From Bacillota bacterium (GTDB taxonomy: Bacteria; Bacillota_I; Bacilli_A; RF39; UBA660), in the NCBI GenBank assembly GCA_015059195.1, contig SVAW01000001.1, forward strand, positions 81,575-145,574: a stretch of 64,000 bases of DNA. The letters are read 5' to 3'. The notes beneath the pieces are model-generated. The model did not search any database, had not been told where the DNA came from, and worked only from the letters and a program-made list of their open reading frames with translations. The position numbers were made by a program, and so were the translations under genes. This document shows, piece after piece, positions 531 through 58,296 of the stretch (its first letter is position 1; the number at the start of each line of letters is the position of its first letter).

Positions 531-1481
531 ATGAAGAAAAAAGGATTTACACTAATAGAATTACTAGCGGTAATAGTAGTACTAGCAATAATAGCACTAA
601 TAGCAACACCAATAGTAATGAATGTAATTAGTAACGCACAAAAAGGAGCAGCAGAAAGAAGTGCAGATAACTACGTAAAAGCAGTAGAAACATTAATCGC
701 AACAGAAAGATTAGATGGGGAACCAGTAGAAGATGGTACATACACAATAGATGAGAATGGAAACATTAAATCTGGTGATGTAGAATTAACAGTTGAGTTA
801 AATGGAACAAAACCAAATGGAGGAAGTATTGAAATTAAAGATGGACAAGTAGTAAAAAATGAAAGTTCAATCAAGGTAGGAGATTATACTGTTACTTTTG
901 AAGATGGAAAAGCTGAAGCGAAAGAATTAGCCAAACTACTAGATGTATGTCAATTAACAGATGGAGAGGAAAATGAAGTAGGAGCAGAGTACAATTGTAA
1001 CCTAGGAGATGGAGATAGAACATTCTATGTATTAGAAGCAGGAACAAGTAGTAAACCAGCAACATTAATACTAGAAGGAAACTATGATACGACGACACAA
1101 AGCTGGTGCGATCAAAATGGTGATTACCCTAATAATAGTTTATTATGCCAAGCAGATGGCTTAGCTGCTAAATTAGATGAAATAGCATTAGCATGGACAA
1201 AATTAGATAGAAGTCAAATAGGAATACCAAGTGCAGAACAAATCATGGTAGCAGATGGCCAAGCAGAAGATGCATATATAGATTATCCAATGTTAAATAA
1301 TGAATGGTTATGGAGTTGGGATAATGAAGCATGGGGAAATTCAGTGAACGGATATTGGACATCTACGCCTGTTGAGGGTGACTCTTATTCTATTTGGCTG
1401 GTATATGATGATGGTAGTGTTAATAATGATTTTGTGGATACTGACTTTGGTGTTCGACCAGTTCTAATGCTCTCAATTTAA
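531..1481 (+). CDS. Type IV prepilin-like protein with C-terminal DUF1566/FISUMP-like module (paralogue P1)
   Basis: N-terminus MKKKG|FTLIELLAVIVVLAIIALIA is a class III signal with Glu at +5. C-terminal motifs are NCNLGDGDRTFYVLEAGTSSKP, IGIPSAEQIM, GYWTST and FGVRPV. Strong RBS. Confidence 0.85.
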   Translation: MKKKGFTLIELLAVIVVLAIIALIATPIVMNVISNAQKGAAERSADNYVKAVETLIATERLDGEPVEDGTYTIDENGNIKSGDVELTVELNGTKPNGGSIEIKDGQVVKNESSIKVGDYTVTFEDGKAEAKELAKLLDVCQLTDGEENEVGAEYNCNLGDGDRTFYVLEAGTSSKPATLILEGNYDTTTQSWCDQNGDYPNNSLLCQADGLAAKLDEIALAWTKLDRSQIGIPSAEQIMVADGQAEDAYIDYPMLNNEWLWSWDNEAWGNSVNGYWTSTPVEGDSYSIWLVYDDGSVNNDFVDTDFGVRPVLMLSI

Positions 1482-3986: not shown

Positions 3987-4943
3987 ATGAAGAAAAAAGG
4001 ATTTACATTAATAGAATTACTAGCGGTAATAGTAGTACTAGCAATAATAGCACTAATCGCAACACCAATAGTAATGAATGTAATTAGTAATGCTTCTAAG
4101 GGAGCAGCAGAAAGAAGTGCAGATAACTACGTAAAAGCAGTAGAAACATTAATCGCAACAAAAAGATTAGATGGAGAACCAGTAGAAGATGGGACATACA
4201 CAATAGGCACAGATGGGAACTTAAGTTTTGGTGATGTTGAGTTGAATGGAACAAAACCCAGTGGAGGAACAATTACAATTAAAGATGGACAAGTAGTTAA
4301 GGAAAATGCTTCAATAAAAGTAGGAGACTACACTGTAACATATGATGATGGAGCTGCAAAAGCCGATCAAATTATTGTATTGTGTAAAGCTATTGCTCCA
4401 ATACAACAAGAACTATATGATGCAACTACGAAAACAATGGTTCCAACAACCGTTGGAATACAAGCTACTTCATCAGCACCATACGCAGCGGGAGCAGTAT
4501 ATAGTTGTAATTTAGGTGATGGAGATAGAACATTTTATGTATTAAGTTCAACTAAAGACACAGTGTCGTTATTAATGGAGGAAAATATGGAAAGTCCAGC
4601 TACATGGTGTGCGACTGGCGATGATAATTCATGTAATGGAGATGGAGCAATCGCAAGTTTGAATTCGCAAACAAGTGGATGGTCAAAACTATTTAGTGTA
4701 AATGGTAAAGTTAGTTTACCGTCATACGATGATATGTATGGAGTTATAGGTGATGACTGGACTGCAATTAATTTGACTAATGTTGTTGCTAACAACGGAT
4801 ATTGGACATCTACGCTATGTGATTTTGAAATTACTGAGGCATGGATTGTAGAAAAAACTGATGTTACGACTACTGCTAGTGTTAACGCAGAATTCGGTAT
4901 CCGTCCAGTAATCACAATTTCCACAGAATATATATCACTTTAA
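3987..4943 (+). CDS. Type IV prepilin-like protein with divergent C-terminal DUF1566/FISUMP-like module (paralogue P2)
   Basis: The first ~110 codons are nearly identical to 51742-52650. C-terminal motifs are SCNLGDGDRTFYVL, VSLPSYDDMY, GYWTST and FGIRPV. Confidence 0.85.
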   Translation: MKKKGFTLIELLAVIVVLAIIALIATPIVMNVISNASKGAAERSADNYVKAVETLIATKRLDGEPVEDGTYTIGTDGNLSFGDVELNGTKPSGGTITIKDGQVVKENASIKVGDYTVTYDDGAAKADQIIVLCKAIAPIQQELYDATTKTMVPTTVGIQATSSAPYAAGAVYSCNLGDGDRTFYVLSSTKDTVSLLMEENMESPATWCATGDDNSCNGDGAIASLNSQTSGWSKLFSVNGKVSLPSYDDMYGVIGDDWTAINLTNVVANNGYWTSTLCDFEITEAWIVEKTDVTTTASVNAEFGIRPVITISTEYISL

Positions 4944-7228: not shown

Positions 7229-7597
7229 ATGAAACGTGGATTTACATTAATTGAGTTGTTAGCTATTATGGTAGTTTTAGGGATGATTGCTGTAATTGCG
7301 ATTCCAAACATTCAAACGGCCTTTTCAAAATCGAAACAAAATCTATTAGAAAATCAAATTAAATCTATAGAAAATGTTGCGCGTTCGTGGGGGGTTAAAA
7401 ATACTAACAAACTAGATGATTGTTATGTTTTAACTTTAGACGAATTAAAAAGATTAGGGTATTTAGAGAATCAAGATGTTATTAATCCAGAAACTAAAGA
7501 GGAGTTAGATGGTTGCATAAAAATTACTTTTGATGAAAGTATAAATCAATATAAATATACCTATACTGAAAGTACTTTATGTAGCTGCAATAATTAA
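7229..7597 (+). CDS. Small type IV pilin/pseudopilin-like protein (ComGC-size)
   Basis: MKRG|FTLIELLAIMVVLGMIAVIAIP. The C-terminal core resembles 50707-51108, 51117-51515 and the N-terminal half of 33261-34190. Confidence 0.8.
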   Translation: MKRGFTLIELLAIMVVLGMIAVIAIPNIQTAFSKSKQNLLENQIKSIENVARSWGVKNTNKLDDCYVLTLDELKRLGYLENQDVINPETKEELDGCIKITFDESINQYKYTYTESTLCSCNN

Positions 7598-33024: not shown

Positions 33025-33216
33025 ATGGCTGTACCATTTAGAAAAGTAAGTAAAACTAGAGGAAGAATGAGAAGAACTCATTATAAAATAAGTGCTAATG
33101 AAACAACTAAATGTCCAAAATGTGGTGCTGATGTAAGACCACATCGTGTATGTCCAGAATGTGGATCATATAAGGGAAAAGAAGTTGTAAAGACTACTGA
33201 AGAAACAACTAAATAG
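33025..33216 (+). CDS. rpmF: 50S ribosomal protein L32 (Zn-ribbon form)
   Basis: [17 protein letters not shown] plus CPKCG...CPECG. Confidence 0.9.
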
Positions 33217-33260
33217 TTGTTTTTTTTGTTGTATGTTGTTATAATTATGATGGTGATAGT

Positions 33261-34190
33261 ATGAAAAATAAAGGCTTTACTTTAGTAGAACTACTTGCAG
33301 TTTTAGTTCTTATTTCTGCAATAATATTAATTGTTGTTCCAAGTATTATTAATTATGTAAATGAAAGTAAGGATAATATTAGTGAAGCGACAGCACAAAT
33401 ACTTTATTCTGGTGCGCAGTTATATGTAGATGCTAATCCAGACAAGTTTTCAAAAGTTGAAGGAAGACAAATTTGTGTAACGCTAGAAGAAATAGTTGCT
33501 TTAAACTATTTGACAGAACCAATAGTTGATAGTATAAGTGGTGAGGAGATAGATTTAGAAACTGCAATAACGATTACTTATACATATGACAAAAATTTGC
33601 AGTATTTAAAACCAGAATATGATGTTTCTGATTCTTGTAAACTTTGTACATTAGTAAATGGCGCGTTTAATGAAGTTGGTTCAAAATATACTTGCGACTT
33701 AGGAGATGGAGATAGAACATTTTATGTATTAGAAGCAGGAACAAGTAGTAAATCAGCAACATTAATACTATATGGGAATTATGATACAATGACTTTGGCG
33801 TGGTGTGACCAGAATGGAGATAATCCGAAAAACAATTCGTGTCATGCAGATGGCTTAGAACTAAAATTAGATGAAATAGCATTAGCTTGGAACAAATTAG
33901 GTAGAAGCCAAATAGGATTACCAAGCATGGAGCAAATTATGGTGGCAGATGGAAGAGGCGAAAATGATTATGAAGGAGGGCAACTGCAGCTAAGTAACAA
34001 ATTTTTATATAGTGGTTATCCGACAACCGATACAACAACACAGGGTTATTGGACATCTACAGGCAGTCCCACTAATGCCTATTATGCACTGCTTTTAAAT
34101 CGCTATGGCAAAACTGCCTCAAATTATGTATATGCAAATCATCTTTATGGCATTCGCCCAGTAATTTATTTAGATTTAAAACAAATATAA
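33261..34190 (+). CDS. Chimeric pilin: small-pilin body fused to the shared DUF1566/FISUMP-like C-terminal module (paralogue P3)
   Basis: MKNKG|FTLVELLAVLVLISAI. Residues ~1-125 resemble the small pilins at 7229, 50707 and 51117. The rest carries TCDLGDGDRTFYVLEAGTSSKS, IGLPSMEQIM, GYWTST and YGIRPV. It has an ordinary promoter region and no leader cassette. Confidence 0.85.
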   Translation: MKNKGFTLVELLAVLVLISAIILIVVPSIINYVNESKDNISEATAQILYSGAQLYVDANPDKFSKVEGRQICVTLEEIVALNYLTEPIVDSISGEEIDLETAITITYTYDKNLQYLKPEYDVSDSCKLCTLVNGAFNEVGSKYTCDLGDGDRTFYVLEAGTSSKSATLILYGNYDTMTLAWCDQNGDNPKNNSCHADGLELKLDEIALAWNKLGRSQIGLPSMEQIMVADGRGENDYEGGQLQLSNKFLYSGYPTTDTTTQGYWTSTGSPTNAYYALLLNRYGKTASNYVYANHLYGIRPVIYLDLKQI

Positions 34191-34214
34191 CGAATGCAGT
34201 AGCATTCGTTTTTT
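34190..34214. terminator. Bidirectional terminator between P3 and the ftsW/rodA-type gene
   Basis: acgaatgc-agta-gcattcgt followed by a T-run. It lies between convergent genes. Confidence 0.8.
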
Positions 34215-35352
34215 AGTTAGTAAATCTAATTAATTCATTTGATATATTAAAAACTATGCCAAGCATGATCATATAGCTAATCAAGCTAGAACCACCATAG
34301 CTAATAAATGGTAGAGTAATGCCCGTAATCGGCATTAATCCTATAGTCATTCCAATATTTTGGAACTGTTGATAGATTAGCATCCCCACAATACCACTGA
34401 TAATATATTTATTTCTGTTGGAATTAGTTTTAATAGCCAAAAATATTAATTTGATATCAAAATATGCGATTAATATGAGTAATATAATTGAACCTAGAAA
34501 TCCAGTATTGTTGCTATAGACTGCAAAGATAAAATCTGTCTGTGGTTCAGGAAAGTATATTGGTGTATTAGTAAAACCCAAACCCAATATTCCTCCAGAA
34601 CCAATAGAGGCCATTCCGTGTTCTAATTGATATCCGGAAGCACTTGACCAATCTAGAATGCGGTCTATTCTTAAAAAAAAGCTTGTGCCAAATATTTTAA
34701 CAAATAATTCCTCATTTAAAAAATATATTATTAATATGCCTCCAATTAAAATAAAAGCTAGAGAAAAACAAATAATAAACCACCTATATCTGATACCTGA
34801 AACAAAAAGCATTGTTAGTGTTGTTAGCAGATAGATTAAAACTACACCAGTATCCGGTTGTAGGAAAGTTAATAAGCTTGGTATTAGTACTACTATCATT
34901 ACTTTAAATAAAAAAAGGAATTCTTGTTTAATACTCGGATTTGGGTCTTTTTCATGAAACTTTTGGATTAATGATCCTAATGTGATTATTAAAATGATTT
35001 TCATAAATTCACTGGGCTGGAAAGCACCAATTCCAGGAATTGTAAACCAACATTTCGCTTCATTAATTGGTTCTGCAAAAATTAGTAATCCAATTAATGA
35101 TAATATACCAATAATATATAATATCCATATATGTTTGTATATATATTCATTACCTATATACATAATAAAGAAAATTGTTAAAAAACCAATTCCATACCAC
35201 ATAATTTGTTTCAATACTAAATTATTCATGTAACTTGGCAATAAATTTTGGGCACTATAAATACTTAAAACACTGATTAAGAAAAACGATATTATACAAA
35301 AAAGTAATTCTCCATTTATTTTATATTTTGATATTTTTTTCATTAATATCAC
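34213..35352 (-). CDS. FtsW/RodA/SpoVE family peptidoglycan polymerase
   Basis: Polytopic SEDS protein (QPSEFMKI, FISYGGSS motifs). Confidence 0.8.
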   Translation of the reverse strand: MILMKKISKYKINGELLFCIISFFLISVLSIYSAQNLLPSYMNNLVLKQIMWYGIGFLTIFFIMYIGNEYIYKHIWILYIIGILSLIGLLIFAEPINEAKCWFTIPGIGAFQPSEFMKIILIITLGSLIQKFHEKDPNPSIKQEFLFLFKVMIVVLIPSLLTFLQPDTGVVLIYLLTTLTMLFVSGIRYRWFIICFSLAFILIGGILIIYFLNEELFVKIFGTSFFLRIDRILDWSSASGYQLEHGMASIGSGGILGLGFTNTPIYFPEPQTDFIFAVYSNNTGFLGSIILLILIAYFDIKLIFLAIKTNSNRNKYIISGIVGMLIYQQFQNIGMTIGLMPITGITLPFISYGGSSLISYMIMLGIVFNISNELIRFTN

Positions 35353-42385: not shown

Positions 42386-42443
42386 AAACATGAAAGAATT
42401 TTAGAGATTACGTTATTCTAAAATTTGTTTTCATGTTTTTTTT
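42386..42443 (+). terminator. Intrinsic terminator related in sequence to the pilin-cassette terminator
   Basis: aaacatgaaa-g-aattttaga...ttctaaaatt-tgt-tttcatgttttttt. The scaffold matches 442-498, with a compensatory C-G to T-A change and a different loop. Confidence 0.8.
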
Positions 42444-42486: not shown

Positions 42487-43395
42487 ATGGAATTAATTAT
42501 AGGTTCACATGTGTCATTTAAACATAAAGATCAATTAGTAGGAAGTGTAGCTGAAGCGTTATCTTATGGGGCTAATACATTTATGTTTTATACTGGGGCA
42601 CCTCAAAATACTAATAGAGCAGAGATAAATGAAGATTTAACTAAGGAAGCATTTAGTCTTATGCAAAAAAATAACATTAATCCACTTAATGTTATTGTTC
42701 ATGCACCATATATAATTAATCTAGCCAATAACGGAATAAATTTTGACTTTGCCATCAAATTTTTAAAAGAAGAAATTAGACGAGTTGAAAAATTAGGAAT
42801 GAAATATTTAGTTCTTCATCCAGGAAGTCATGTGGGGCTTGGTGTAGATGCTGGTATTAAAAATATTATTGAAGCTTTAAACTTTGTACTTACAGAAGAT
42901 ACTAATGTAGTTATTTGTTTGGAAACTATGGCTGGAAAAGGTAGTGAAATTGGCTCTACTTTTAATGAGCTAAAAAGAATAATTGATGGAGTTAAATTTA
43001 ATGATAAATTAATGGTTTGTATGGATACATGCCATATGCATGATGCCGGATATAACGTAGAAGATTTTGATTCGTTATTAGAAGATTTTGATAAAATTAT
43101 TGGTATTGATAAAATTGCTTGTATCCATATAAATGACAGTAAAAATGTAATAGGTGCACATAAAGATCGCCACGATAACTTTGGTATTGGAAAAATTGGC
43201 TTTGATAATCTTATTAAAATCATTTATAACGAAAGACTAGATGGTGTGCCTAAAATTTTAGAAACTCCATATATTGGGGAGGTTGATGACTCCAAAGAGC
43301 GACTTTATCCACCGTATAAATTTGAAATTGAAATGATTAGAAATAAAAAGTTTGACCCTGAGGTTTTAAAGAATATTAGAAAATACTACAAGTAA
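42487..43395 (+). CDS. nfo: Endonuclease IV
   Basis: HAPYIINLA, LHPGSH and CMDTCH motifs. Confidence 0.9.
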   Translation: MELIIGSHVSFKHKDQLVGSVAEALSYGANTFMFYTGAPQNTNRAEINEDLTKEAFSLMQKNNINPLNVIVHAPYIINLANNGINFDFAIKFLKEEIRRVEKLGMKYLVLHPGSHVGLGVDAGIKNIIEALNFVLTEDTNVVICLETMAGKGSEIGSTFNELKRIIDGVKFNDKLMVCMDTCHMHDAGYNVEDFDSLLEDFDKIIGIDKIACIHINDSKNVIGAHKDRHDNFGIGKIGFDNLIKIIYNERLDGVPKILETPYIGEVDDSKERLYPPYKFEIEMIRNKKFDPEVLKNIRKYYK

Positions 43396-50706: not shown

Positions 50707-51108
50707 ATGAATAAAAGAGGATTTACACTTGTAGAGTTAGTGGCAATAATTACACTCCTTGCGGTAATATTAATGATAGTTGTTCCAACAGTCGGGACAT
50801 CCATTAAAAATGCTCGTGAAAACTCATATCTGAAGCAAATTGATTTGATAGAAAAGGCGGCTAAAAATTTTGGAGTAGAGAATGACCACCTTCTTCCTGA
50901 ATTTAATTCAAATCAAATTATAACGATAGATTTTAATACATTATATACTTCGGGTTATTTAAAAGATAAAGCACCTATGAATCCCAAAACAGAAGAGGGG
51001 TTAACTGGTTGTGTGAAAGTTTCATATAATTCTGATTATAACCAATATGAGTATAAATATATTGATAATTTAGTAGAGTGTGATAACTATAATATAAATA
51101 ACAAGTAG
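50707..51108 (+). CDS. Small type IV pilin/pseudopilin-like protein
   Basis: MNKRG|FTLVELVAIITLLAVILMIVVP. The C-terminus ...GCVKVSYNSDYNQYEYKY is shared with its neighbour. Confidence 0.8.
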   Translation: MNKRGFTLVELVAIITLLAVILMIVVPTVGTSIKNARENSYLKQIDLIEKAAKNFGVENDHLLPEFNSNQIITIDFNTLYTSGYLKDKAPMNPKTEEGLTGCVKVSYNSDYNQYEYKYIDNLVECDNYNINNK

Positions 51109-51116
51109 GTGATAAA

Positions 51117-51515
51117 ATGAAAAAAGGCTTTACACTAGTAGAACTGCTTGCGGTTTTGTCAATTTTGGGGATATTAGCGGTGATTATAATTCCATCCGTA
51201 GCTACTACTATAAAAAATTCAAGAGTTGCTGCCTATGATAAACAGCTTTATGTTTTAGCTACGGCCACAGAAAAATGGGGAACTCAGCACCTAAACGAAC
51301 TTCCTGAGACAACATCTAACAACATAGTTGCAGTTGATTTTGAAACACTATATCAAGCTGGGGAAATTGCTTCTTATCCTGTACAAAACCCAATTACTGG
51401 GAACGACTTAGAAGGCTGTATCTTAATTTCGTATAACTTGCAATATAAACAATATGAGTACAAATATTCTGATAATTTAGCAGTATGCGATGATAACCAT
51501 TATAATAATGATTGA
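51117..51515 (+). CDS. Small type IV pilin/pseudopilin-like protein (tandem paralogue)
   Basis: MKKG|FTLVELLAVLSILGILAVIIIP ... GCILISYNLQYKQYEYKY. Confidence 0.8.
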   Translation: MKKGFTLVELLAVLSILGILAVIIIPSVATTIKNSRVAAYDKQLYVLATATEKWGTQHLNELPETTSNNIVAVDFETLYQAGEIASYPVQNPITGNDLEGCILISYNLQYKQYEYKYSDNLAVCDDNHYNND

Positions 51516-51741: not shown

Positions 51742-52650
51742 ATGAAAAAGAAAGGATTTACATTAATTGAGTTACTAGCGGTAATAGTAGTACTAGCAAT
51801 AATAGCGTTAATCGCAACACCAATAGTAATGAATGTAATTAGTAATGCTTCTAAGGGAGCAGCAGAAAGAAGTGCAGATAATTATATTAAAGCAGTAGAA
51901 ACATTAATCGCAACAAAAAGATTAGATGGAGAACCAGTAGAAGATGGTGTATACACAATAAGGGCAGATGGGAACCTTAAATTTGGTAATGTTGTGTTAA
52001 ATGGAACAAAACCAAGTGGAGGAAGTATTGAAATTAAAGATGGACAAGTAGTTAAAAATGAAAGTTCAATCCAGGTGGGCGACTACGTAGTAAGTTATAA
52101 AGATGGAAAAGCAGAAGCAAAAGGATTAGCGAAACTAGACGATGTATGTCAATTAACAGATGGAGAAAAAAATGAAGTAGGAGCAGAGTACAATTGTAAC
52201 CTAGGAGATGGAGATAGAACATTCTATGTATTAGAAGCAGGAACAAGTAGTAAACCAGTAACATTAATATTAGAAGAAAACTATGATGTGGAAACTCTAG
52301 CATGGTGCGATCCTGATGTAGAACATTCTGAAGAAGAGGGTTGTAATGCAGATGGATTAACAGAAAAATTTAATTCGATTAGAGGAGCATGGTCGAAATT
52401 GGATAAAAAACAAATAGCTTTACCAACTTATGAGCAAATTTATGCGGTTAATGATGATGAATCATTCAAAAACGTTGGTTGGTTATATGATAACTTGGAG
52501 GAATCATCAGCACCATACGGTTATTGGCTTTCTGATTCATTGAATTGGGATGAAACATGGTTTGTTGACTATACAGGAATTATGAATTTTGATTCAACAT
52601 CGATAGCTAATAGGTATGGTGTTCGCCCAGTAGTAATGCTTCATATTTAG
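51742..52650 (+). CDS. Type IV prepilin-like protein with DUF1566/FISUMP-like C-terminal module (paralogue P4)
   Basis: The N-terminal ~190 codons form a mosaic of P1-like and P2-like sequence. C-terminal motifs are IALPTYEQIY, GYWLSD and YGVRPV. Confidence 0.85.
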   Translation: MKKKGFTLIELLAVIVVLAIIALIATPIVMNVISNASKGAAERSADNYIKAVETLIATKRLDGEPVEDGVYTIRADGNLKFGNVVLNGTKPSGGSIEIKDGQVVKNESSIQVGDYVVSYKDGKAEAKGLAKLDDVCQLTDGEKNEVGAEYNCNLGDGDRTFYVLEAGTSSKPVTLILEENYDVETLAWCDPDVEHSEEEGCNADGLTEKFNSIRGAWSKLDKKQIALPTYEQIYAVNDDESFKNVGWLYDNLEESSAPYGYWLSDSLNWDETWFVDYTGIMNFDSTSIANRYGVRPVVMLHI

Positions 52651-57587: not shown

Positions 57588-57716
57588 ATGGTTAGAATAA
57601 ATGTAAAAAAACAAATAACAAAAAAGCTCCTGGGGGGGGGGAGGTATTTAAGTAATCATACTATAACTAGAAAAATAAATAAACACGAAATAATTTTAGA
57701 AAATCCATCGTTCTAA
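57588..57716 (+). CDS. Cassette mini-ORF L4, 42 aa MVRINVKKQITKKLLGGGRYLSNHTITRKINKHEIILENPSF (read-through frame)
   Basis: G10-A-GG puts the ribosome in the third frame. The ORF runs through the hairpin 3' arm and the terminator 5' arm and loop. It stops at TAA 57714-57716 inside the terminator 3' arm. Confidence 0.4.
   Translation: MVRINVKKQITKKLLGGGRYLSNHTITRKINKHEIILENPSF
57632..57641 (+). repeat. Homopolymeric G10 tract (then AGG) inside mini-ORF L4
   Basis: Direct count: ctcct + 10 G + a + gg + tattt. Confidence 0.9.
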
Positions 57717-57736
57717 AGTTTGTTTTCGTGTTTTTT
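57681..57736 (+). terminator. Intrinsic terminator inside leader cassette 4
   Basis: Same scaffold as the other copies, with one wobble substitution and a T6 run. Confidence 0.75.
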
Positions 57737-57768
57737 GTATGCCTTGTTAAGAATAGGAGGAAAGAAAG

Positions 57769-58296
57769 ATGAAGAAAAAAGGATTTACACTAATTGAATT
57801 ACTAGCGGTAATAGTAGTACTAGCAATAATAGCATTAATAGCATTAATAGCATTAATAGCAACAGAAAGATTAGATGGGGAACCAGTAGAAGCTGGTACA
57901 AACAGCAAACCAGTAACGTTATTACTATCAGGACTCTATGATGGAACACCTATAAACTGGGTAGATGCTCACACTACCAAATTAGATGAAATGGCACGTG
58001 CTTGGACAAAATTAGATAGAAGTCATATAGGATTACCAAGCTTGGAACAACTTCTAGTAGCAGATGGTCAATCAGCAGATGATTATATTCTTGGTGATAC
58101 CATGTTAGGCAGACAATGGTTAACTCAATGTGATCATGAGGAGTGGACTAATACAATACACGCATATTGGACATCTACTTCTATCAATGATAATACTGCA
58201 GTTGATATTCCTGTTGGTGGTATGTTGGAGAGCTCTAGTATTACAGTCGTTGGTGATGTAGGTATTCGCCCAGTTATAACATTATCTATAAATTAG
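57769..58296 (+). CDS. Internally deleted pilin-like paralogue P5 (prepilin helix joined to C-terminal module; possibly a pseudogene)
   Basis: MKKKG|FTLIELLAVIVVLAIIALIALIALIA-TERLDGEPVE-AGTNSKPVTLLL... Two in-frame deletions relative to P1 and a 9-bp tandem expansion at 57822-57857. It retains IGLPSLEQLL, AYWTST and GIRPV. Confidence 0.6.
   Translation: MKKKGFTLIELLAVIVVLAIIALIALIALIATERLDGEPVEAGTNSKPVTLLLSGLYDGTPINWVDAHTTKLDEMARAWTKLDRSHIGLPSLEQLLVADGQSADDYILGDTMLGRQWLTQCDHEEWTNTIHAYWTSTSINDNTAVDIPVGGMLESSSITVVGDVGIRPVITLSIN
57822..57857 (+). repeat. 9-bp tandem repeat (agcattaat x3 plus one imperfect unit) in the P5 N-terminal helix
   Basis: agcaataat agcattaat agcattaat agcattaat. P1 has only two imperfect units at the homologous site. 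Confidence 0.85.

Follow-up and report, generated by a model that had tools for sequence, protein, structure and literature searches.

A bimodular type IV pilin of a Bacillota bacterium and the apparent exchange of its adhesin-like head between unrelated pilin stalks

The DNA analyzed here (the window) is a stretch of 64,000 nucleotides from a Bacillota bacterium (GenBank assembly GCA_015059195.1, contig SVAW01000001.1, positions 81,575 to 145,574). It has a G+C content of 29% and is located on contig C10 of a 753-kb genome comprising 12 contigs. Its central element is P3, an intact open reading frame at 33261-34190 (+) that encodes a predicted type IV prepilin of 309 amino acids and has an ATG start preceded by GGTGAT. 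P3 lies among housekeeping genes, in the order tmcAL, yceD, rpmF, pilin and ftsW-type gene, with rpmF (L32) at 33025-33216 on one side and a convergent ftsW/rodA-type gene at 34213-35352 (minus) on the other. The gene comprises the following parts.

33261..34190, plus strand: P3 coding sequence, a bimodular type IV prepilin (open reading frame, prepilin models and AlphaFold2 model)
33261..33275, plus strand: class III signal peptide leader MKNKG (read from the sequence; N_methyl and TIGR02532 matches; a peptidase gene in the genome)
33276..33638, plus strand: pilin module or stalk, residues 6-126, with a long alpha-1 helix, a small beta-sheet and conserved Cys72 and Cys126 (model, hhalign and orthologue alignment)
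33639..34187, plus strand: head module, residues 127-309, DUF6273/Lcl_C-like, with the motifs Y.C, FYVLE, LPS.EQ, GYWTST and YGIRPV

The N-terminus carries a class III signal peptide, MKNKG/FTLVELLAV (in full MKNKG followed by FTLVELLAVLVLISAIILIVVP), and matches both Pfam N_methyl (25 bits; cut-off 21.2) and TIGR02532 (24.2 bits; cut-off 16.3). Cleavage is predicted after Gly5, which would yield a mature protein starting with FTLVE and having Glu at position +5. The AlphaFold2 model of full-length P3, built on 57 aligned sequences, shows two modules with a mean predicted local distance difference test score (pLDDT) of 91.3 and a predicted template modelling score (pTM) of 0.77. In the stalk, a helix (residues 8-58) and three strands (70-74, 102-110 and 115-123) are modelled with pLDDT mostly above 88, and together they display what characterizes a pilin fold, namely a long alpha-1 helix on a small antiparallel sheet. 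Sequence comparison with the solved PilE1 aligns the helix only (E 0.003).

Besides P3, a motif scan of the window identified seven prepilins. Three of them are members of the big family (P1, P2 and P4) and three are stand-alone small pilins, which the first-pass annotation of this DNA had taken as comparators for the stalk of P3.

531-1481, plus strand: P1, the closest module copy within the window, with a big-family stalk and a poly-G leader
3987-4943: P2, big family
7229-7597: stand-alone small pilin, related to the P3 stalk but of a different subfamily
50707-51108: stand-alone small pilin, likewise related and of a different subfamily
51117..51515, plus strand: stand-alone small pilin, likewise related and of a different subfamily
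51742-52650: P4, big family
57769-58296: truncated family copy

As the hydrophobic helix is common to all pilins, the stalk comparison was restricted to the parts beyond mature residue 27. By hhalign, a profile of P3 and its orthologues matches small pilins of the type found in the window with a probability of 94.7% (E 6e-8, 69 columns), versus 0.4% (E 0.16) for the N-terminal part of the big family, so the N-terminal half of P3 is closer to the small pilins than to P1, P2 or P4. The same profile matches the stand-alone pilins of 120-128 amino acids in related genomes over their full globular length (99.8%; E 6e-29). When residues 1-136 were compared by BLASTP with the own genome, the top match was a stand-alone pilin of 124 amino acids on contig C1 (38% identity, E 4e-22). 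Two small pilins of the window, at 7229 and 51117, aligned almost from end to end (29-30% identity, E ~1e-11 to 1e-12), and the one at 50707 over residues 1-39 in the genome search and over residues 1-133 (26% identity) in a search of the window only. For the big family, alignment was confined to residues 1-45; its stalk (MKKKGFTLIELLAVIVVLAIIALIATPIVMNVISNA... plus a globular part) is not shared by P3 on either measure. A phmmer search with the globular stalk (residues 28-136) against all collected pilins recovered the orthologues and the small pilins of relatives, but no small pilin of the window and no big-family member; among the profile methods, the link to the window pilins is thus visible only by profile-profile comparison.

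The seven syntenic stalks that were aligned (P3 and six orthologues) have invariant Cys72 and Cys126 and diverge directly after the latter, while stand-alone relatives terminate 0-6 residues past the equivalent of Cys126. Residues 1-126 of P3 are therefore a complete small pilin with an extra part grafted on its end. The first-pass annotation, which described residues 1 to about 125 as built like the pilins at 7229, 50707 and 51117, was right in seeing a complete and related small pilin there (hhalign 94.7%). Yet those three are cousins of the P3 stalk, whose nearest kin is a different small-pilin subfamily, represented in this genome by the 38% identical C1 pilin. This C1 pilin (C1:~57646-58017, minus) starts with MKKNA/FTLIE and thus has Ala rather than Gly at position -1.

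The head (about 180 residues) follows Cys126 directly and belongs to a family shared by about 17 paralogues. It is 42-58% identical to most family heads and 34% identical to that of P2 (module alignment). On the DNA level, similarity between P3 and P1 begins abruptly at 33669 (residue 137, NEVGS) and amounts to 79% over 287 bp (33669-33952 versus P1 972-1258); with the head of P4 it is 71% from the same position onward. These results bear out what had been proposed from a first inspection of the gene: a switch to the family module at about residue 135, closeness of this module to P1 even in nucleotide sequence and, taken with the hhalign result for the stalk, a two-part chimera of a complete small pilin and a family module whose edge in the DNA is at 33669.

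Pfam profiles assign DUF6273 (PF19789) to nine out of 15 family modules (E up to 0.1; 23.8 bits for P1) and Lcl_C to four. Folded alone, the P3 head reaches a pLDDT of 88 and a pTM of 0.87. Foldseek returned six matches with E up to 0.001 in BFVD, a comparison in which both sides are predicted models; these are gut-phage proteins, mostly DUF6273 (probability 1.00, template modelling score (TM) 0.50-0.65). Among solved structures, the head matches an immunoglobulin A (IgA) peptidase of Thomasclavelia ramosa (PDB 9qa6; probability 0.93), which is also the single useful PDB match of the full-length model. The N-terminal domain of this peptidase is annotated as DUF6273 (PMC12402451). A profile of the 15 heads found no match among PDB sequences. 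DUF6273 domains of phages are described as C-type-lectin-like receptor-binding domains with a variation-tolerant binding surface and as targets of diversity-generating retroelements (PMC10743442). By analogy, the P3 head probably binds a ligand, and as judged from the models its fold may be C-type-lectin-like. The same head also occurs on a third stalk in this genome, in a protein of 244 amino acids (C6:32676-33410, minus) that starts with MKLNNRG/FAVTS, lacks Glu5, has a single helix and has no poly-G leader.

The arrangement at the P3 locus recurs in relatives, whose public records describe uncultured Tenericutes or Bacilli bacteria from the gut of humans, rabbits, chickens, sheep and goats. 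In four other genomes of the genus (G002, G005, G001 and G004), a pilin with the P3 stalk is located next to rpmF and before the ftsW-type gene (for G004 the locus is visible on the rpmF side only), and two metagenome lineages (P0002 and P0024) show the same neighbours. The heads of these pilins differ.

G002: 275 amino acids; the head is a very diverged copy of the same module
G005 (L003:1501-2622, UQVP01000016.1): 373 amino acids; head of ~245 residues with no Pfam match
G001 (L008:1069-1902, minus): 273 amino acids; two dockerin type I repeats (PF00404, E 5e-24), starting four residues past the last Cys
G004 (L016:257 onward): 273 amino acids; dockerin repeats by sequence, the protein being nearly the same as that of G001
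P0002 (JGI metagenome): 313 amino acids; the head is a module of the same family
P0024 (ENA, 213-kb contig): 328 amino acids; the head ends in GVRPV, has no Pfam match and is not in the tree described below

The G005 head has no relative in the genome of the window. A kinship to a pilin of 499 amino acids at C10:219743, suspected by eye, was rejected (E 0.26). Since the same stalk-plus-head design is found at the same conserved housekeeping locus in other lineages, the design is old and the fusion did not occur recently in this genome. The stalk is vertically inherited, whereas the head has been replaced at least twice at this locus.

The recent history of the P3 head is connected to one paralogue, Q (C10:14008-14949, 313 amino acids), which is located outside the window on the same contig, ~100 kb upstream of P3, and carries a big-family stalk and a poly-G leader. 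The shared segments are as follows.

33669..34160, plus strand: tract shared with Q (C10:14437-14928), 492 bp, ungapped, 93.7% identical
33697..33750, plus strand: the most conserved DNA block of the family (LGDGDRTFYVLEAGTSSK), 96-98% identical to several copies (windows 33693-33767), likely the 5' recombination anchor
33754..33915, plus strand: longest perfect run between P3 and Q, 162 bp, inside the tract

The 31 differences within the tract fall in 10 synonymous and 15 non-synonymous codons. A sliding-window scan for the best paralogue (P3 versus 15 paralogues) reveals a mosaic: 33708-33767 is 98% identical to P1, P4 and other copies, and between 33753 and 34127 no copy comes closer than Q, at 91-100% compared to 44-89% for other copies. 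The variable tail of the head had been regarded as P3's own, which does not hold for the part up to 34160 that is included in this tract. Past 34160, P3 does have its own ending (IYLDLKQI), which resembles that of the positional orthologues and not the ...LSI of the big family. On the protein level, P3 and Q share 20% identity in the stalk and 86% in the head (pairwise global alignment; 89% in the module alignment). For the closest positional orthologue, P0002, identity instead drops from 82% in FtsW to 73% in the stalk and 52% in the head. A head that is 86% identical to a paralogue but 52% identical to the orthologue, discordant with its flanks, is a signature of ectopic gene conversion and points to a recent head exchange.

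In a maximum-likelihood tree of 45 heads, P3 is sister to Q and a Q-like fragment (100/100), and this group is nested in a clade of almost only big-family heads. Mapping the stalk type on the tree requires four changes, of which well-supported branches enforce at least three; this fit was not equalled in any of 500 shuffles of the labels. Together with the third stalk type mentioned above, this sustains the earlier proposal that the module moves between two pilin scaffolds. As a separate observation, a metagenome contig (L106, JGI 3300019378, 1030 bp) joins a start-less leader-module junction (96% to C10:150722-150935) to a Q-type head and the downstream flank of Q (98.9%). It represents either a strain with a 5'-deleted Q locus or a route taken by the assembler through 115 bp of common sequence, and was not used as evidence.

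Taken together, we consider it probable that P3 is a bimodular type IV pilin whose DUF6273-like head was recently exchanged with Q by gene conversion. Under this explanation, a complete small pilin (signal peptide, alpha-1 helix and a small sheet closed by a Cys) would bear a DUF6273-like head of ~180 residues. The stalk would be passed on vertically across lineages while the head is replaced or overwritten. The heads of P3 and Q, the latter a member of a ~17-copy phase-variable family with an unrelated stalk, would have been exchanged by homologous recombination, with conserved blocks near the tract ends probably serving as anchors (LGDGDRTFYVLEAG at the 5' side and YGIRPV at the 3' side). 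Prepilin peptidase would then cleave P3, which may be assembled into the pilus or at its tip, and the head would be displayed, probably at the tip, and bind a surface ligand. As read from these sequences, adhesin heads are exchanged among the pilin stalks of this uncultured gut bacterium. A single pilus machine is encoded in the genome, in a region of contig C7 (C7:4761-10782) where two minor-pilin-like genes accompany those of the platform protein, the prepilin peptidase and the PilB-type ATPase.

C7:4761-7454: platform protein with two T2SSF domains
C7:7471-8235: prepilin peptidase (Peptidase_A24, Pfam match)
C7:8270-9634: T2SSE (PilB-type) ATPase (Pfam match)

The platform protein is unusually long (897 amino acids); both T2SSF domains are C-terminal and preceded by a large N-terminal extension.

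The big-family genes and P3 also differ in their upstream regions. A poly-G leader of ~235 bp, comprising a promoter, an inverted repeat around a run of G9-G11 and a terminator, is present upstream of P1, P2, P4 and the truncated copy in the window, and in about 19 copies genome-wide, including that of Q. None of these copies lies near P3, in agreement with the first-pass annotation, which had described P3 as lacking this cassette. It had also called P3 the only module-bearing gene with an ordinary promoter region; within the window no other module gene is without the leader, but genome-wide the C6 gene on the third stalk lacks it as well. Two further observations concern the leader itself. 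In P2 (3900-3969) and Q (C10:13920-14007), an extra 70-88 bp separates leader and start codon, an insert that other copies do not have. A lone 57-bp copy of the terminator part (86%) is situated at 42386-42442, before an open reading frame at 42487-43395 and far from the pilins. In place of the leader, the spacer of 44 nucleotides between rpmF and P3 contains a hairpin with a U-run and then TGTTATAAT, giving the following signals around the gene.

33196..33229, plus strand: hairpin and U-run at the end of rpmF (fold -10.8 kcal/mol, z -3.7 versus shuffles), conserved in orthologous loci; probably an intrinsic terminator, rather weak, between rpmF and P3
33237..33245, plus strand: extended -10 box TGTTATAAT, 15 nucleotides before the start codon
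33252..33257, plus strand: ribosome-binding site GGTGAT, read from the sequence and conserved in orthologues
34189..34210, both directions: two-way terminator hairpin shared with the convergent ftsW/rodA-type gene

The TGnTATAAT box is kept at the same spot in L002, L003, L008 and L016, hence in all five loci compared, with P3 as the fifth. A search of the whole window with Rfam found one tRNA only and no known riboswitch upstream of P3 or the family genes. P3 is predicted to be transcribed from its own extended -10 promoter without a slippage switch, and the absent leader and the conserved box fit a non-phase-variable gene.

This raises a more far-reaching reading, in which P3 is an always-on display site: a constitutively transcribed stalk at a fixed position among housekeeping genes that repeatedly receives heads from the ~17 phase-variable genes and from start-less copies. 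If true, variation would be organized in two layers, slippage switches on the one hand and pilE/pilS-like conversion into P3 across unrelated stalks on the other, and the dockerin and other heads in sister species would be a long-term trace of the same process. The reading is built on a single recent tract, and we regard it as unlikely. Another possibility is that P3 is a decaying or silent donor copy that is not expressed. No RNA run with P3 was found, and the genome contains at least one start-less family copy (C10:150812). Nonetheless, the frame of 309 codons, the start, the ribosome-binding site, the signal peptide and Glu5 are all intact, the stalk is 73% identical to that of an orthologue, the -10 box is conserved in the genus, as is the ribosome-binding site, and a terminator follows the gene, which makes a silent P3 highly improbable.

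P3 could also be a recent, one-off fusion, in which a single illegitimate or homologous event joined the 3' half of a family gene to a stand-alone small pilin adjacent to rpmF. Both the abrupt start of family DNA similarity at 33669 and the near identity of the head to that of a paralogue are in line with such an event. Against it, the same stalk-plus-module combination is present at this locus in G002 and in the P0002 lineage, and P0024 has the stalk with a related-looking head. The orthologue heads have moreover diverged to 33-52% identity to that of P3, and features of the stalk lineage flank the tract on both sides, as the head starts with C.LCTLV.G like that of P0002 and the tail LDLKQI resembles IDIQELLK of P0002. 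The chance of a one-off fusion is therefore slight. Very little credit can be given to the proposal that the heads of P3 and Q are alike because an old, common head has been under strong purifying selection. Both heads are indeed intact, and selection does act in some form, as 15 out of 25 differing codons alter the amino acid. Synonymous differences, though, are not cleared by purifying selection, and yet the two genes share a perfect run of 162 bp and 96-100% of their DNA over ~380 bp, compared to 44-70% for the other paralogues in these windows; in addition, protein identity between the head and its counterpart in the positional orthologue is just 52%, compared to 82% for the adjacent FtsW.

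Finally, the chimera might have been created during assembly. In a metagenome-assembled genome with about 20 similar copies, an assembler may jump from a small pilin to a family copy through a shared repeat, and Logan contigs do fork within 33954-34160 into P3-type and Q-type paths. Contigs from three faecal runs of 2018 (X1, X3 and X6) all span the junction at 33669: X1 covers 33198-33983 with no differences, X3 covers the same span with two and X6 covers 33198-34108 with nine. A contig of 151 bp from a sheep-gut run of 2021 (33583-33733) also crosses the junction without differences. As this genome may itself derive from some of the 2018 runs, these are not all independent, while the sheep-gut run probably is and the orthologues certainly are. 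The X3 and X6 contigs start from the P3 stalk and carry Q-type bases at two and nine head positions, respectively (33916-34067). Such variation in phasing could result from assembler paths through the shared repeat or from a boundary shift between strains, and it was not used as evidence. An assembly artefact is hardly credible, as the junction sequence is unlike every paralogue (62-87% in 45-nucleotide windows over 33648-33722) and is crossed without differences in all four runs, the 3' end of P3 continues into unique sequence on the ftsW side and independently assembled orthologues show the same design.

We thus retain the explanation of an old bimodular pilin with a recently converted head, against which the following points have to be counted. 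The match of the P3 head to DUF6273 (13 bits, E 0.095) stays under the gathering cut-off of 23.5. The head resembles solved C-type lectin domains weakly (TM 0.25-0.46, probability ~0.1), for which reason ligand binding is argued from relatives. The head of P0002 falls in the same polytomy, so that, by tree and flanks, the transfer between P3 and Q may have gone either way. The phasing of the few differences between P3 and Q over 33916-34108 varies among Logan contigs. A simple two-hexamer scan called no promoter before P3, the box being a consensus match, and the search of RNA runs yielded none with the gene. The genome is 87% complete, and the copy counts given here are therefore lower bounds.

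Modular design as such is already known for type IV pilins. In Streptococcus sanguinis, PilB combines a pilin with vWA and PilC combines one with a concanavalin-A-like lectin, and more than 1,200 modular pilins in 264 architectures have been reported (Raynaud et al. 2021, PMC8179133). P3 has what these authors ask of a modular pilin, i.e., a complete pilin, a short link and a separate module. Like PilB and PilC, it has a small class III pilin, a bulky and probably ligand-binding C-terminal module, a very short link and a monoderm host, and its head, too, is expected to be presented by the pilus, probably at the tip. Different from S. sanguinis, the head is DUF6273/Lcl_C-like rather than vWA or concanavalin-A-like; the gene stands alone among housekeeping genes instead of in a pilus operon; and one head family is found on three unrelated stalks in a genome of 0.75 Mb and is exchanged between stalks.

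The exchange itself resembles pilin variation in Neisseria, where one expression locus, pilE, is supplied by promoter-less silent copies (pilS) of the same pilin in a programme that depends on RecA and G4 (a guanine quadruplex). In both cases, homologous recombination transfers variable stretches of pilin from one dispersed gene copy to another, and the tracts are bounded by conserved blocks. Unlike in Neisseria, most copies here have their own promoter and switch, and the exchange crosses two pilin stalks and involves a whole grafted domain, with one recent tract seen. On the level of fold, the P3 head model matches the phage DUF6273 'tentaclins' (PMC10743442) and the T. ramosa IgA peptidase (PMC12402451). 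In the phages, a retroelement mutates one hairpin, whereas here variation involves a multigene family and recombination. Lcl_C (PF07603, formerly DUF1566), known from the Legionella collagen-like adhesin, weakly matches the four modules mentioned above (best E 5.7e-5) but not the P3 head, and it sits on a trimeric collagen-like stalk. Both families have motifs of the type ...YW.S... and ...RPV... in common. P3 is thus a modular type IV pilin with family-wide recombination and a variant of known things rather than a new class.

Modular pilins explain many functions of simple pili, while the acquisition and renewal of their modules are little documented. P3 offers a clean natural example, with a mapped, sharp-edged tract between two stalk types, three stalks in one genome and swapped heads at one locus. 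It suggests that these pili routinely vary what they bind by exchanging heads through homologous recombination, and it singles out P3 as the first candidate for constitutive expression. In the sister species G001 and G004, the dockerin-headed type IV pilin could recruit cohesin-bearing proteins onto the pilus. The unusual share of a tiny genome that is spent on these genes points to attachment being central to the lifestyle of this bacterium.

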